DNA from: a candidate division WWE3 bacterium | Lineage (GTDB): Bacteria > Patescibacteriota > WWE3 > UBA101185 > UBA10185 | Direction: 5' to 3' | NCBI GenBank assembly: GCA_052035175.1 | Contig: JBPOHV010000001.1 | Coordinates: forward strand, 523,338 to 587,337 | Length of the DNA stretch: 64,000 bases | In this document: positions 4,827 through 44,933 of the stretch, piece after piece | How the letters are laid out: every line of letters starts with the position of its first letter | How positions within the stretch are numbered: the first letter of the stretch is position 1 | Program-made: the position numbers and the translations under genes | Notes under the pieces: generated by a model | Database searches by the model: none | Told to the model about the DNA's origin: nothing | What the model saw: only the letters and a program-made list of their open reading frames with translations

Positions 4827-6039
4827 TCAGGCAATTCCAAGAAAAATGCATATCGATATAAATTCGTGTTTTGCTACGATCGAGCAACAAGCAAATCCTC
4901 TTTTACGAGATCGGCCTATAGCAGTAGCTGCAAGAAATTACTCTTACGGTACAATTGTAGCTTCTTCTTATGAAGCTAAAAAACTTGGTATTAAAGTAGG
5001 TACAAAAGTTAACGAAGCCAAAAAGCTTTGCCCTAAAATAGTAATAGTCGAACCAGATCCTGCTAAATACCGTGATGTACATATAAAAATCAAAGCTTTA
5101 TTAGGTAGGTATACTGATAAAGTAATTCCAAAGTCTATTGACGAATTTGTTTTAGACTTTTCTCATAAATCATTTGATAAGCTTGATCTTTTTGAAATTG
5201 GTAAGCAAGTAAAAGCTGATATACGGGCAAAAGTAGGCGAATATATTAGTGTATCTATCGGTATTGGGACAAATAGGTTCTTGGCAAAGACAGCGTCAAA
5301 TCTTAAAAAGCCTGATGGATTAGAATTTATCGACCATACAAATGCTACAAGTGTATATCAAAAACTGTCACTTATTGATTTACACGGGATAAACAAAGGA
5401 TTTGCTTCACGTTTGGCTGGAATAGGTATATTTAATGCATACGACTTTTTGTTGGCAAGTCCACAAGCTTTGAACTCAGCTTTCAGGTCTATAAATTCTT
5501 ATCAATGGTATTTGCGCTTACGCGGATGGGAAACCGACGAATCAGATTATTCTAGAAAAAGTTTTAGTAATTCTTATGTTTTACCAAAATCAACTAAAGA
5601 TATTACTGAGATATCTGCAATATTGATGAAGTTAGTTTTCAACACAACTCAACGACTGCGCGCTCATAAATTTAGAGCAAAAGGTATCCATTTGGGAATT
5701 TTGTTTGGAGATAAGTCTTATTGGCATAAAGGTACTATTTTGACATCCGATTTATCTGACACTAGTGCTCTGTATAAAGTGTTTTTTAGATTAATGTACG
5801 CATGCCCTGATATACATACAAAACCAGTCAAACAGATTTCTGAGGCATGTTTTTATCTAACACCGGCGAGCACATTACAATTGGAGTTGTTTCAAAATAA
5901 ACCAAAGCAAGAAAATATTACAAAAGCTATGGATAGTATAAATAATACTTGGGGAGATTTTACACTTGTACCTGCGAGAATGGTACATACCAAAGATCAC
6001 GCCAAAGATACTATCGCATTTGGTAACGTACGAGCATAA
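4813..6039 (+). CDS. dinB: Y-family DNA polymerase IV (DinB)
   Basis: 408 aa. N-terminus RKMHIDINSCFATIEQ...RDRPIAVA matches the DinB/UmuC catalytic core (HVDMDCFFA...PV-V). Confidence 0.85.
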   Translation: MKNFNQAIPRKMHIDINSCFATIEQQANPLLRDRPIAVAARNYSYGTIVASSYEAKKLGIKVGTKVNEAKKLCPKIVIVEPDPAKYRDVHIKIKALLGRYTDKVIPKSIDEFVLDFSHKSFDKLDLFEIGKQVKADIRAKVGEYISVSIGIGTNRFLAKTASNLKKPDGLEFIDHTNATSVYQKLSLIDLHGINKGFASRLAGIGIFNAYDFLLASPQALNSAFRSINSYQWYLRLRGWETDESDYSRKSFSNSYVLPKSTKDITEISAILMKLVFNTTQRLRAHKFRAKGIHLGILFGDKSYWHKGTILTSDLSDTSALYKVFFRLMYACPDIHTKPVKQISEACFYLTPASTLQLELFQNKPKQENITKAMDSINNTWGDFTLVPARMVHTKDHAKDTIAFGNVRA

Positions 6040-23926: not shown

Positions 23927-24001
23927 GGGGGTGTAGCTCAGTGGTAGAGCAGCGGCCTCTTAAGCCGCGTGTCGAGGGTCCGATCCCCTCCACCCTCACC
24001 A
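23927..24001 (+). tRNA. tRNA-Lys (anticodon CTT), CCA encoded; its 3' end serves as an integration site
   Basis: Acceptor gggggtg/caccctc (one G·U pair). D-arm gctcagtggtagagc. Anticodon stem gcggc/gccgc with loop ctcttaa. T-arm gaggg-tccgatc-ccctc. A -10 tataat lies at 23907-23912. Confidence 0.85.
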
Positions 24002-24018
24002 TTTAAACAAATTATTCC
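23982..24018 (+). repeat. Direct repeat DR-L (attL-like): tRNA-Lys 3' end plus 17-nt flank
   Basis: The 37-mer gatcccctccaccctcaccatttaaacaaattattcc recurs at 29658-29694 with 35 of 37 identical. Its first 20 nt also recur at 24130-24149. Confidence 0.7.
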
Positions 24019-24039
24019 GTTGTTACAATTTTATAGATG

Positions 24040-25446
24040 TTAAGTTATAGGTAAGGGATCGGATGCCGGACCCCGCTTAGCGGGGGAGGCGGGATCGACG
24101 GGCGAGCTAGCAAGCGAGAACCGGTGATCGATCCCCTCCACCCTCACCAATAGATGAGATGCGTTGTCCACGCCACCCTGCTTAAAGCGGAACAGCGTGC
24201 TTAAAGTTGGTGTTTTAAATCCCGGATATTGATAATAGAGGTTTTCAGGAAAAATAATCTTTTGTAGTTCTGTTTTTCTTTCGAACGACAGCTTTTCCCA
24301 CAGAGTTCTAGGATTTTGGTACAACCGAGAAATCTCATACTCAAATTTCGCATTTTCAAACTTTAAATTTTCGTTTTTATTTAATTTTAGATATTTACCC
24401 TTCGTGAGAAACAAAAGCGCGTTTACGGAGCTCCTAAGCGGTCTGATTTCATCTAGTAGTGACTTAAACTCAGACTCAAGAACATCTTTATGAACAGTTT
24501 TTCCTTTAGTTATGGGGTAATAGTATGGATAATGTTTTGTCTTGCCCTTGCACCAGGAACCAGTGAAGCTAGTATTAGATATTGCACACTTAACTAAAAC
24601 TCTTAATGGAAAGTCATCTTTTCTATAACTTTTGGGTTTACCAAGGGGTTTCGATGCCGCAAGTTTTTGTAATTTATCCCACTCATGGTCAGTAAACATA
24701 GCATCATGTTTTCCTTCGTAGATGTTTTCAGTCTTCTTAAATTTAATTACACCCTTGTAAAAGGGATTTCTAATAAACTTACCTACAAAATTGGAGCCTA
24801 CTTTTTTCCCACTTTTGGTTTTTATGCCACTTTCATTTAAATGTTTAGCAATTTCTTGAAAAGAGTAACTGCCTGTCAAATATAGATGGCCAGCATCCTT
24901 TAGTATCGAAAAATTTGGTTCATCTCTTATCGGCACCCTATGATCTTGACCTATATGCTCTAATCTATATCCAATTGGAGGCACGCTTACCGGATAACCT
25001 GCTTGAACGCGCTTTTTTATACCGTCACGGGCCCGCTCAGCTCTAATTGCATTATCTAGTTTGGCTTGGGCAGCAATTAACGTTTCAATAAACTCCCCCA
25101 TAGGTGTATTATCCGTAAACTCTGTAGCTGACTTAATAACTACGCCATAATCTTGTAATCGTCGTTTTATGTCTAAATAATCAATTGTGTTGCGTGATAG
25201 CCGATCTAGTCTGTACACAATCAAGTGTGTTATTTTACCTTTAGATTTTCTGCAGTACTCCAGTAGTCTTATAAGTTCTGGGCGTTCCGCAGTTGCTGCC
25301 GATTTTCCTTCATCTCGAAATATTTCAATAATTTCAAGCTCCTGTAATGCACTGTAGTTACGACAGTAATCTTCCTGATTTGATAACGAAAAATTATTTA
25401 CTTGTTCTTCACTGCTTACTCGGAGATAAGCTATAGCTTTTTTCAT
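24040..25446 (-). CDS. Large serine recombinase (resolvase/invertase catalytic domain + recombinase domain)
   Basis: 468 aa. Catalytic serine motif (AIAYLRVSSEEQ). DEGKSA, LIVYRLDRLSRN and the dimerisation helix are present. The C-terminal ~35 aa are Pro/Ser/Ala-rich and are encoded by a GC-rich segment that contains the extra att-core copy at 24130-24149. Confidence 0.8.
   Translation of the reverse strand: MKKAIAYLRVSSEEQVNNFSLSNQEDYCRNYSALQELEIIEIFRDEGKSAATAERPELIRLLEYCRKSKGKITHLIVYRLDRLSRNTIDYLDIKRRLQDYGVVIKSATEFTDNTPMGEFIETLIAAQAKLDNAIRAERARDGIKKRVQAGYPVSVPPIGYRLEHIGQDHRVPIRDEPNFSILKDAGHLYLTGSYSFQEIAKHLNESGIKTKSGKKVGSNFVGKFIRNPFYKGVIKFKKTENIYEGKHDAMFTDHEWDKLQKLAASKPLGKPKSYRKDDFPLRVLVKCAISNTSFTGSWCKGKTKHYPYYYPITKGKTVHKDVLESEFKSLLDEIRPLRSSVNALLFLTKGKYLKLNKNENLKFENAKFEYEISRLYQNPRTLWEKLSFERKTELQKIIFPENLYYQYPGFKTPTLSTLFRFKQGGVDNASHLLVRVEGIDHRFSLASSPVDPASPAKRGPASDPLPIT
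24130..24149 (+). repeat. Third copy of the 20-nt tRNA-Lys 3' end (gatcccctccaccctcacca) inside the recombinase C-terminal coding region
   Basis: Exact 20-nt match to 23982-24001. It is not part of a foldable tRNA. Confidence 0.6.
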
Positions 25447-25902
25447 AAAAACAGCCGCACTGGTAGTTGTAAACAGAACCTAAGGCACTGTTAACCAATG
25501 CGGCCATTTTAATACCCTAGACTTAACTGCTTACAACTTAATCAATTATAAACTAAGGGACTTGACACTCAAACTTCCTAACATGCTAGTATATGGCAGC
25601 TCAATTTGAGCTCGATGGCCCTACCTACACAGGGTGGCTTTAGCCAAGGGTGTAGGCCGACCGTAGCGAACGAAACGACCGACGGGTGAAAACGGGTCAG
25701 TTTATCTGACTATATGCTCTTAGGTTTTACACTTAAGAGATGAGAAACCTCAGACGAAATACTCAAAAGTTCTTAAAAGTTATTTTTTGACGAGCTTGCG
25801 AGTCGTCTAGGAGATATCCTGAGGGAGTGAGGGAAGCGAAGGGAGGACCCCCGGAGTTGTGCGTATAGGGGCGAAGGGGGTTTGGGGGATGTCGTGACAT
25901 CG
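25447..25902. other. GC-rich 455-bp non-coding region between the recombinase gene and a cargo gene; candidate structured RNA or att/regulatory region
   Basis: No ORF. Nested hairpins (cctacac...gtgtagg at 25621-25653; gacga...tcgtc at ~25790-25808). Purine-rich block GAGGGAGTGAGGGAAGCGAAGGGAGGACCCCCGGAG at 25821-25855. Confidence 0.35.
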
Positions 25903-26277
25903 TTAACTTTGATACACACCAGTTATTTTATTTAGCTCCTGGATATATTTAAGTCTAGTTAAATAGTCAGGCAATTTAACTCCACCAATAATTTGGTACG
26001 CGTATAAACCCTCGGTAACCACCTCCATGTATTTTTCCAATACATCTGATACTACCAATGCCTCAGATAAAGCTTTTCTGAAATTAAGCCTATTTAAGTT
26101 TTGTGAAGAAATAACTGCTGCGGATTTACGGTTTTTCACATTGTAAAAACGTTCAGTAGAACTGACAGGATCAAAAGGTTTCCCATCTTTCACCCTGTTT
26201 GCAATATCTTTAATTACAAGCTGTTGTTTTATACTGAGACCAAATGGATTGCTAATATTTCTAGTTACTCTAGGCAT
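25903..26277 (-). CDS. Hypothetical protein (element cargo); weak resemblance to a terminase-small-subunit-type HTH
   Basis: 124-aa ORF. The N-terminal segment LSIKQQLVIKDI is HTH-like. This is weak evidence. Confidence 0.35.
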   Translation of the reverse strand: MPRVTRNISNPFGLSIKQQLVIKDIANRVKDGKPFDPVSSTERFYNVKNRKSAAVISSQNLNRLNFRKALSEALVVSDVLEKYMEVVTEGLYAYQIIGGVKLPDYLTRLKYIQELNKITGVYQS

Positions 26278-26336
26278 TTATATATTATACAATCTAGTTT
26301 TTTACTAAAATGCCACAAAAGAGGTAATATGTTCCT

Positions 26337-29624: not shown

Positions 29625-29897
29625 GCTGTCGAAATCACCTCTACCCGAGAGAGCTTCGATCCCCACCGCCCTCACCATTTAAACAAATTATTCCATGTAC
29701 CCCGCATAAAGGCTGGGCAAAAAACCACAACATGGAGACTATTTGACGACAAAGATTTAAAAGTAAACGATGAAATTGAACTCATAAGCCGACCAGACCT
29801 TAAAACATTCGCAGTTGCAAAAATATTGGAAATTACTGAAAAACCAGAAAATACTTTGGTAAAAGTACTAAAGTTTAAAATATCAAAATTTCTATAA
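29625..29897 (+). pseudogene. ASCH/PUA-like ORF with no start codon, reading through DR-R (possible gene remnant or non-canonical start)
   Basis: Open frame ...IKAGQKTTTWRLFDDKDLKVNDEIELISRPDLKTFAVAKILEI...KFL*. The G-x-K-T-x-E-x-R...V-x-D-x-I pattern resembles the ASCH N-terminus. There is no ATG, GTG or TTG in frame after the upstream stop. Confidence 0.3.
29658..29694 (+). repeat. Direct repeat DR-R (attR-like): degenerate tRNA-Lys 3' end plus the identical 17-nt flank
   Basis: gatccccaccgccctcaccatttaaacaaattattcc differs at 2 of 37 positions from DR-L. The sequence upstream of it does not fold as a tRNA. Confidence 0.7.
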
Positions 29898-43673: not shown

Positions 43674-44000
43674 TTTAATTTTTCAAAAAAAACATTAGGG
43701 TGGCCAACAATATACTTACCTCAGTAATCATCATATTGTTAACCACCCATAAAAAAATCAATCCCCATAGATAAAGTTACCCAATCCTCTAGATTGGGTG
43801 CTCGGGAATCACTATGCTGCAGGCAATCTAGACTATTTGTAATGAACCCATTTTAAATAGTACTGGCCTACAGGGCTACAATCCGTCGGCTTATAGGCAC
43901 GCGATAACGCGTCCGTGCGGTGGGGATTTGTCTCTAGCAATCCTTATTTGAATAATAGCATTGAAATGTTTATAAATTAAAAATACTTATACAACGACAA

Positions 44001-44050
44001 AACCCCCTTCCGGGCAGAAAAACTGTCCCAGAAGGGGGTTTTTGGTTTTG
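44001..44050. terminator. Bidirectional intrinsic terminator
   Basis: Stem ccccctt(c)...(g)aaggggg with inner structure. U-tracts on both sides (aaaa 43999-44002; tttttggttttg 44039-44050). Lies downstream of the minus-strand gene that ends at 44059. Confidence 0.55.
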
Positions 44051-44058
44051 TCTTTTTC

Positions 44059-44691
44059 TTAAGGAGCGTAATACGCATCCTTAAGTGTAAAACAGGGGAG
44101 TCTGGGAGACTCGCCCTTTGGACCATCAAAAGAGATGGTCGGTACCTGTACTTTGATGGCTGGTTGCCCAGCCACATCGTACAGAGTGTAGGTCTGCAAC
44201 AGTGCAGACCCAGGTTTCAACGTGACATTCCCTATTGTCACGTTCTCACCAACAAGTGCGGCATTAATGCCGACATAGTTGGTTGAGGAATAGATCACAG
44301 TATCCTTGGTGTCCAACACCAAGACTTCAATACTGTAGTCAATTTGCCCATTGCTTGGGCAGCGATATTCCGCGGTTTGCGAAGCATCGCGAACCGACCC
44401 CAGGTACTTGCGTACCACAATCGTGTACCCTTGACTTAACAAGGAGTCGATTGTTTCGTTGGTCACCGGGACTGACGTGGTACTGTTAATGAAGGTAGTG
44501 CCTTCTGTACCAGCCTCCGGTGTTTCGGTCGGCGCGACCGCGGTAGCGGTTGCGCTTTGTGATTGCTGGGTTACGGTCGCAGATCCCGGGAGGGGATCCA
44601 CAAAAACCGGGCGGTTAATAAAAATCCAACCACCTGACGAAATCAGCACCAGCAAAATAATGGACCAAAAAAACCGAGTCGAGCGTTTCAT
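44059..44691 (-). CDS. Hypothetical secreted/membrane-anchored protein in a GC-rich island
   Basis: ORF 44059-44739. The likely start is MKRSTRFF (44691), followed by a TM segment. Local GC is ~50% versus ~35% genome-wide. Thr/Ala/Pro-rich linker. Confidence 0.45.
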   Translation of the reverse strand: MKRSTRFFWSIILLVLISSGGWIFINRPVFVDPLPGSATVTQQSQSATATAVAPTETPEAGTEGTTFINSTTSVPVTNETIDSLLSQGYTIVVRKYLGSVRDASQTAEYRCPSNGQIDYSIEVLVLDTKDTVIYSSTNYVGINAALVGENVTIGNVTLKPGSALLQTYTLYDVAGQPAIKVQVPTISFDGPKGESPRLPCFTLKDAYYAP

Positions 44692-44933
44692 TTTTTTCTC
44701 CTTTATGAGAAGTGCTTTTAGCTTATTGGGAAGCCCCACTAAGCTAAAAAACGATTTGTTTTGATAAGAACAATTATACTATAGGATAGACATTCCGTAA
44801 AGACCTTTGTGATATAAAAGATACTACTTTATATTATAGCTACGCCATTTGTTGACTATTTGAGTAAATCAACGTAACCTATAATTAATGCCACTTTTCA
44901 TCAAATTTTCACTTTTTAAGGGGGTGAAAATAT

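Follow-up and report, generated by a model that had tools for sequence, protein, structure and literature searches.

A structured recombinase leader and an unconserved GC-rich insert make up an intergenic interval of a small tRNA-Lys island

A small island of about 5.7 kb beside a tRNA-Lys gene carries a GC-rich interval (25447–25902) next to its recombinase gene, and the question raised by this locus is whether that interval is a recombination site, an RNA, or DNA with no function of its own. The 64-kb stretch of DNA that was analysed (the window) has a GC content of 35.5%, in line with the background of about 35% given in the first-pass annotation, and among public assemblies it is most closely related to those of Patescibacteria (CPR). 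The same annotation had put the interval at about 50% GC, which overstates it: the interval has 46.3% GC overall, within the top 1.7% of the window's 456-nt windows, and only 25597–25902 reaches 50.3%. Composition is in fact a mosaic, with 38% GC in 25447–25596, 58% in 25597–25700, 33% in 25701–25800 and 60% in 25801–25902. The interval was correctly described as ORF-free, its longest frames (45 and 48 aa, both on the minus strand) being proline-rich and of low complexity, and a tblastn search with ORFs from all related loci (identified below by L numbers) gave no match to it. Its position between the recombinase gene and the cargo was also correct; the cargo-side neighbour is a truncated gene resembling the small subunit of phage terminase (TerS-like), and the interval lies on the 3' side of this gene. 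We find that the interval is a composite of a conserved recombinase leader and approximately 345 bp of unconserved GC-rich DNA. The elements that frame it are as follows.

23981–24001, plus strand: copy A of the island's attachment core (21 nt), part of the intact tRNA-Lys(CTT) gene (23927–24001)
24129–24149, plus strand: copy B of the core (21 nt), within the 3'-terminal part of the recombinase ORF
24040–25446, minus strand: large serine recombinase (LSR) of 468 aa, with Pfam Resolvase and Recombinase domains and a match to the phrog_95 integrase family
25903–26277, minus strand: truncated TerS-like gene of 124 aa, assigned from 65 relatives, their alignment, phrog_51 matches and phage synteny
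29657–29694, plus strand: copy C of the 21-nt core (29657–29677, two mismatches) with the 17-nt flank that it has in common with copy A, the island's distal boundary

The attachment sites of the island are placed outside the interval. A 38-nt stretch composed of the tRNA 3' end and its 17-nt flank (23981–24018) recurs at 29657–29694 with 95% identity, and the 3' end of the LSR gene reads through a further copy of the tRNA-Lys 3' end. The same 21-nt repeat delimits the element in L006, whose recombinase, like that of L002, is 48% identical to the window LSR; in both loci the end of the recombinase ORF contains a complete tRNA-Lys(TTT) gene in antisense orientation. When the interval was locally aligned to sites A, B and C, the best scores were 9–10 against shuffle means of 9.3–9.5, and 198–362 of 500 composition-preserving shuffles scored as well. 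The interval was rejected as an att site on this shuffle-controlled comparison, and the earlier suggestion of an attP-derived region falls with it, the junction repeats being copies of the tRNA-Lys 3' end. Beyond the TerS-like gene the cargo consists of a YaaC-like gene, a gene for a 344-aa protein with weak resemblance to restriction endonucleases (REase-like) and a DUF5677 gene; no replication or capsid-remodelling genes were recognised in the island.

The 124-aa ORF was an orphan by word-based search and gained its 65 relatives by exhaustive phmmer. Most of these relatives are approximately 155–160 aa long and carry an additional C-terminal coiled coil of about 35 aa that is missing from the window protein, which ends, as do its closest relatives, just after a conserved GVY. 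Two family members match PHROG 51 (terminase small subunit); the family is encoded on 35 IMG/VR viral contigs, often within a few hundred bases of the contig end; and in the phage locus L016 a Zn-ribbon ORF, an ORF of 108 aa and the terminase large subunit (phrog_38, E 3e-80) come after the TerS homologue. By these matches, viral-contig members and terminase synteny the 124-aa ORF is a truncated TerS homologue. A single-sequence structure prediction of the protein (pLDDT 46) was too poor for use. The TerS-like ATG is preceded at a distance of 6 nt by a TATAAT (26275–26300) and by no Shine-Dalgarno sequence; given so short a distance, the TerS-like mRNA may be leaderless.

The phage contigs show two further conserved arrangements around TerS. 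A Zn-ribbon ORF of 47–67 aa (CxxC...C-x-R-x-GLL) is conserved 3' of TerS in many of the phage contigs among L008–L042 (for example at 531–832 in L010, 3223–3525 in L025 and 1106–1416 in L032) and is followed by an ORF of about 110 aa and the large terminase. L022–L024, L015, L030, L031 and L034 contain a gap of 200–550 nt that has no ORF and is conserved between contigs.

A short TerS-like gene lies directly upstream of an LSR gene, on the same strand, in five sequence-distinct gene contexts, with truncated TerS homologues of 108–127 aa and with recombinases of three clades that are 22–29% identical to the window LSR. The pairings, with the spacers between the two genes, are listed below.

Window, TerS-like gene at 25903–26277
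L043, 8001–10214: spacer of 97 nt
L046, 809–1419: spacer of 106 nt
L047, 3329–5541: spacer of 38 nt (38–41 nt in L047–49)
L050, 6001–8141: spacer of 101 nt
L057, 5001–7394: spacer of 499 nt, AT-rich and unrelated in sequence to the window region
L053: TerS-like and LSR genes not adjacent, the LSR being a few genes away

A plausible reading of this recurrence is that the integrase has an accessory factor or regulator in a DNA-binding protein derived from TerS, possibly a directionality factor; on few sequences, a packaging protein has seemingly been recruited to integrase control. In L050 the REase-like protein is 84% identical to its counterpart in the window island, the DUF5677 protein 54% and the TerS-like protein 55%, while the recombinase is only 22% identical to the window LSR and targets tRNA-Glu. 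These identities make L050 a true sister of the window island, and none of its parts is GC-rich. Since L050 shares the cargo and the TerS-like gene and differs in the recombinase, the recombinase module has been exchanged, and the interval lies exactly at the seam.

The part of the interval next to the recombinase is conserved. Positions 25441–25560 (minus strand) align with the spacers of L043, L046, L050 and L006, the last of which has a recombinase of the window type and a different upstream gene. Two features were assigned here.

25545–25572, minus strand: recombinase promoter-like site, with a -35 of TTGAGT (25572–25567), a 16-nt spacer and a -10 of TATAAT (25550–25545)
25448–25538, minus strand: structured 5' leader of the LSR mRNA, about 95 nt, with homologous leaders in L006, L043 (two), L046 and L050

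The promoter-like site was picked up by a promoter scan, and the tRNA genes of the window have the same kind of -10 as its TATAAT. Invariant in the five-sequence leader alignment are the TATAAT, an AAA-G-CCG...T-G motif and a C-A...CG...TTTT..ATG motif; a sixth instance, which precedes the second recombinase of L043 (L043:5025–5133), has TAAACT in place of TATAAT. The leader can form two helices, P1, in which 25538–25527 pairs with 25476–25465, and P2, in which 25510–25494 pairs with 25464–25448 and which ends 1 nt before the ATG (25446). P1 and P2 cross, with zero linker between their 3' arms, and may represent either a pseudoknot, which would be sterically demanding without a linker, or two alternative states.

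Covariation argues for both helices. Pairing was scored over 29 pairs and compared with slid controls, in which the 3' partners were shifted, and with shuffles, for two alignments.

Alignment A2, 5 sequences: 94.3% of cells paired and 11 pairs changed on both sides; slid controls 39–49% and 1–2 pairs; shuffles 0/500
Alignment A4, 6 sequences: 94.0% of cells paired and 13 pairs changed on both sides; slid controls 38–48% and 2–5 pairs; shuffles 0/500

These counts are to be read with the fact that the helices were derived from the same six sequences (four lineages) on which pairing was counted. A covariance model of P2 only (R1) recovered the sixth instance, on which it was not trained, with E ~1e-4, and in the resulting model-based alignment P1, which is not in the search model, had 98.5% of its cells paired and covariation in 10 of its 12 pairs. 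The local leader fold has a z-score of -3.45, and each of the six instances, from several lineages, immediately precedes a large serine recombinase gene. The leader matched no Rfam family, and an IMG/VR pattern search for its conserved loop returned two unrelated matches only. The inverted repeats might conceivably act at the DNA level as an operator; among the 31 non-Watson-Crick cells, however, 21 are G.U on the sense strand and 10 are other mismatches, an excess that speaks for a sense-strand RNA rather than an antisense RNA or a DNA palindrome. The regulatory RNA proposed in the first-pass annotation is retained in altered form: a structured leader with covariation is present at 25448–25538, in the AT-rich quarter of the interval beside the integrase, but the GC-rich hairpins and purine tract on which the proposal had been based are not part of it.

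The arrangement of promoter, helices and start codon suggests how the leader could act. The integrase-proximal ~115 bp would comprise a sigma-70-type promoter and the ~95-nt leader of the LSR mRNA. The TATAAT sits 6 nt 5' of the first P1 base, so the transcript should start with P1, at its first base. The loop closed by P1 would then hold the 5' arm of P2, with the 3' arm of P2 provided by a U-rich stretch that ends 1 nt before the AUG. Because this arm ends so close to the AUG and a Shine-Dalgarno sequence is lacking, the most likely role of the leader is to hold down integrase translation by occluding the surroundings of the start codon; a signal or an alternative fold would open the occluded integrase start. 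The leader is like the structured 5'-UTR operators of translation that block access to the ribosome-binding region: it is located in cis, downstream of the promoter and upstream of the start codon in a single gene family; one of its helices ends at the start codon; and compensatory changes conserve its fold. It differs from them in having no known ligand, protein partner or temperature dependence and no Shine-Dalgarno sequence to hide, in its two crossing helices that span the whole leader, in belonging to no Rfam family, and in being tied specifically to the large serine recombinases of Patescibacteria-type islands. From few sequences, this appears to be an undescribed leader RNA, supported by covariation, 5' of LSR genes in small tRNA-targeting islands of Patescibacteria-type genomes. 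Serine integrases are widely used tools of genome engineering, and to our knowledge their post-transcriptional control is poorly known.

The rest of the interval has no counterpart in the related modules. In L043, L046, L050 and L006 the -10 lies 2–5 nt after the upstream stop codon, with spacers of 97–108 nt, versus 352 nt from the TerS-like stop codon to the TATAAT in the window, which therefore contains approximately 345 bp of extra DNA. All of the features named in the first-pass annotation (GC-richness, nested hairpin and purine tract) fall in this insert, which is made up as follows.

25551–25902: GC-rich lineage-specific insert of ~345 bp, from the TerS-like stop codon to the recombinase -10, no homologue
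25562–25592, plus strand: divergent promoter-like site P+, with TTGACA (25562–25567), a 19-nt spacer and an extended -10 of TGcTAGTAT (25584–25592)
25597–25700: GC-rich block 1, 58% GC, with the nested hairpin (25624–25656) and the repeats AGGGTG, CGACCG and ACGGGT, each present twice
25801–25902: GC-rich block 2, 60% GC, with 46 G and 15 C on the plus strand; it contains the purine tract (25821–25856), G-runs (25868–25888) and a small hairpin (25887–25902)

Searches for relatives of the insert gave no homologue by blastn and nhmmer against 59 related loci, in phage and plasmid records, or in pattern scans of IMG/VR (both GC blocks, the hairpin and a piece denoted X); a pattern scan of JGI metagenomes gave two chance matches, to an unrelated palindrome and to coding sequence of a methyltransferase. 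The patterns used in IMG/VR and JGI were exact or degenerate. No GC-rich block was found upstream of the closest recombinases (L002 and L006), and nothing convincing was seen of terminal inverted repeats or a target duplication at the insert ends. The 499-nt spacer of L057 was considered as a counterpart of the insert and rejected for its unrelated, AT-rich sequence. The comparative check that had been suggested earlier came up empty for the GC-rich 25573–25902, with no homologues in the 59 loci or the collections and related spacers of 38–108 nt. Absence from the relatives shows the insert to be dispensable, which does not mean that it is inert.

Both features that had first drawn attention are real, and they differ in weight. 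The nested hairpin is present as described (cctacac 25624–25630 with gtgtagg 25650–25656, around tggct 25635–25639 with agcca 25642–25646), and its block folds only modestly better than shuffles (z of -1.9 on the plus strand and -2.5 on the minus strand), so that the hairpin alone is not beyond chance. The purine tract, located at 25821–25856, forms together with GGGGCGAAGGGGGTTTGGGGG (25868–25888) the most G/C-strand-asymmetric segment of the 64 kb, with a G4Hunter score of 2.28 (the window maximum) and a C-minus-G excess of 0.40 on the minus strand, the largest in the window, an asymmetry that is well beyond chance. A strict G4 motif (four G-runs of ≥3 with loops of 1–7 nt) is absent from it, and there are instead two clusters of three G-runs, 24 nt apart. 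A scan for intrinsic terminators (GC-rich hairpin and U-run) of 25447–25902 found none on either strand.

Read on the minus (sense) strand, block 2 is rich in C, poor in G and unstructured (C 46 and G 15 in 25801–25902; MFE z = -0.2), and it lies immediately 3' of the TerS-like stop codon, where a poorly structured RNA stretch of about 80 nt with C in excess of G would result. Predictions of Rho-dependent terminators look for this signature, a C-rich unstructured tract beyond a stop codon with hairpins after it; a literature search found nothing on Rho in this organism. By this signature the sense-strand tract looks like a rut site, with which it shares the ~80–100 nt of C-rich, G-poor, unstructured RNA after the stop codon and the hairpins downstream. 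Unlike rut sites, it has a C bias far above that of the genome and no counterpart in the sister elements; given that absence, the tract did not evolve as a feature of the module. The insert also supplies the -35 of the recombinase promoter.

We consider a promoter and conserved leader joined to a lineage-specific insert, which would be filler and possibly an insulator, to be the probable and best explanation of the interval. The ~345 bp would mark the seam between exchangeable modules, the cargo and TerS-like gene on one side and the recombinase on the other, and would most likely be foreign or filler DNA left by module exchange. If the insert acts at all, its likeliest effect would be transcriptional insulation, through the rut-like tract combined with a new -35 for the recombinase. 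Neither the strong G/C strand asymmetry nor the good divergent promoter would be expected of random filler, which counts against the filler reading. For the insert we rank junction filler, at most an insulator, above an antisense or other non-coding RNA, and that above a DNA site for packaging, origin or accessory function; the GC-rich stretch as originally proposed is an unconserved insert that adds little.

The strongest rival, which we regard as unlikely, is a non-coding RNA gene of about 300 nt that runs rightwards from P+ (~25599), antisense to the 3' end of the TerS-like transcript and to any transcription that reads through into the recombinase; its action would be that of a cis-antisense regulator or would depend on the SD-like, GGA-rich purine tail. 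P+, read from the sequence, could drive such a plus-strand RNA: it has a consensus -35 and an extended -10 back to back with the recombinase promoter, and tRNA-Phe, too, apparently has TAGTAT as its -10. The whole region folds with z = -3.1 on the plus strand and has several local hairpins, and a weak hairpin with a T-containing tail is present at 25887–25913. On the other side, the 19-nt spacer of P+ is long and promoter-like matches in the interval are no commoner than in shuffles; the individual blocks of the plus strand reach z-scores of only -1.3 to -2.3; and there is no Rfam match, no homologue and hence no covariation, the region being missing from every related module. In Rfam 15 only tRNAs of the window reach the gathering threshold; at E<=10, 25300–26100 and 25570–25910 gave noise or nothing, and the GC-rich piece at 24002–24260 and the spacers of related elements matched no family. 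The Rfam scan suggested in the first-pass annotation was accordingly negative for the interval, and its large mobile-element non-coding RNA is not upheld, on the lack of Rfam matches at E<=10 and of homologues and on the weak folding of the sub-blocks.

An improbable further reading is that the GC-rich part is a DNA site, either an attP-like or accessory recombination site, a pac or cos site for the TerS-like protein, or an R-loop or G-quadruplex origin of the excised circle. The 33-bp imperfect palindrome (25624–25656) has the general dyad-symmetric look of LSR attP and attB sites, but the junction repeats of this element family are 21-nt tRNA-Lys 3' ends, and the att sites are placed elsewhere and have no significant similarity to the interval. 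A TerS homologue adjoins the region; in the phage contigs, however, TerS lies 9–700 nt from the contig ends on its 5' side, which places the termini upstream of terS and not downstream, and the TerS-like protein lacks the C-terminal part. Short direct repeats with a GGG core occur in both GC blocks, flanking the 33%-GC centre, and the G-run cluster resembles G-quadruplex-forming sequences; on the other side, no replication protein was recognised in the island and a strict four-run G4 motif is lacking, and the sister islands do without the region altogether.

Comparably improbable are two bolder proposals, that an RNA from P+ forms an R-loop or G-quadruplex on the excised circle through its G-run tail or silences in cis, or that the leader is opened by TerS. 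If true, the first would allow priming or termination at the G-run tail, in the manner of mitochondrial CSBII or of origins of the ColE1 type, or would provide cis silencing of the TerS-like/integrase transcript; the second, in which the adjacent TerS-derived protein opens the leader pseudoknot, would couple phage infection to integrase translation. The least likely reading is a decayed coding remnant, of the lost TerS C-terminus, of the Zn-ribbon and ~110-aa ORFs that come next after TerS in phages, or of a replaced recombinase: full-length TerS homologues are indeed ~35 aa longer, but the five closest homologues of the TerS-like protein also end right after GVY, which makes the short version a subfamily in its own right, a tblastn search of the region with 6035 ORF fragments, drawn from every related locus, gave only noise, the read-through frames are unlike the TerS family C-terminus (six-frame inspection), and the blocks have 58–60% GC versus 31–44% in the phage loci.

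The preferred reading of the interval, a conserved leader with an insert at a module seam, belongs to an island that recalls known phage satellites. The pairing of a serine recombinase with a TerS homologue in small islands is known among phage satellites, namely PLEs and marine VEIMEs (PMC9618062). The window island is like these in its small size (~5.7 kb), its location at a tRNA gene, its serine integrase and defence-like cargo, and in a TerS homologue that is most similar to environmental-phage genes. It differs in that the TerS-like protein is truncated, in the position of its gene directly 5' of the recombinase in five contexts, and in that no replication or capsid-remodelling genes were recognised. 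With an integrase and a phage-derived packaging gene in a small integrated element, its gene content would fit a phage satellite of the PICI-like kind.

Several minor observations were made in the window and the related loci. A 67%-GC, 80-nt piece at 24050–24128 lies between a tRNA-type promoter (TGtTACAAT), which resembles the tRNA-Lys(TTT) promoter of L002, and the 21-nt copy of the tRNA-Lys 3' end (all within 24019–24149). It occupies the place expected for the 5' part of a tRNA-Lys(TTT) gene, within the recombinase ORF tail, and together with the 21-nt copy it folds well (-49 kcal/mol, z -3.05) and has no Rfam match; it may be the remnant of a tandem element or of a destroyed tRNA gene. 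In related elements the recombinase ORF enters its target tRNA gene (tRNA-Lys, tRNA-Glu or tRNA-Arg) in antisense at its 3' end, covering the whole tRNA in L002 (8406–8480) and L006 (8278–8352) and part of it in L047 (5536–5611), L050 (8101–8175) and L001 (2857–2933); since the ORF extends into the target gene, integration alters the C-terminus of the enzyme. Between the short TerS-like gene and the recombinase of L057, positions 5479–5690 (identical in L055 and L056) contain a TTGACA-17-TATAGT promoter-like site, about 150 nt with several hairpins, a clean hairpin and U-run terminator, and then a 51-aa ORF, and form a candidate small RNA whose sequence is unrelated to the window region. The segment of the window with the highest GC content (53%) is 44059–44692 (minus strand), beside a terminator-like hairpin at 43995–44045. 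It was considered as an RNA gene and rejected: it encodes a secreted protein that has a signal peptide but matches no Pfam family, and horizontal transfer is its probable origin.
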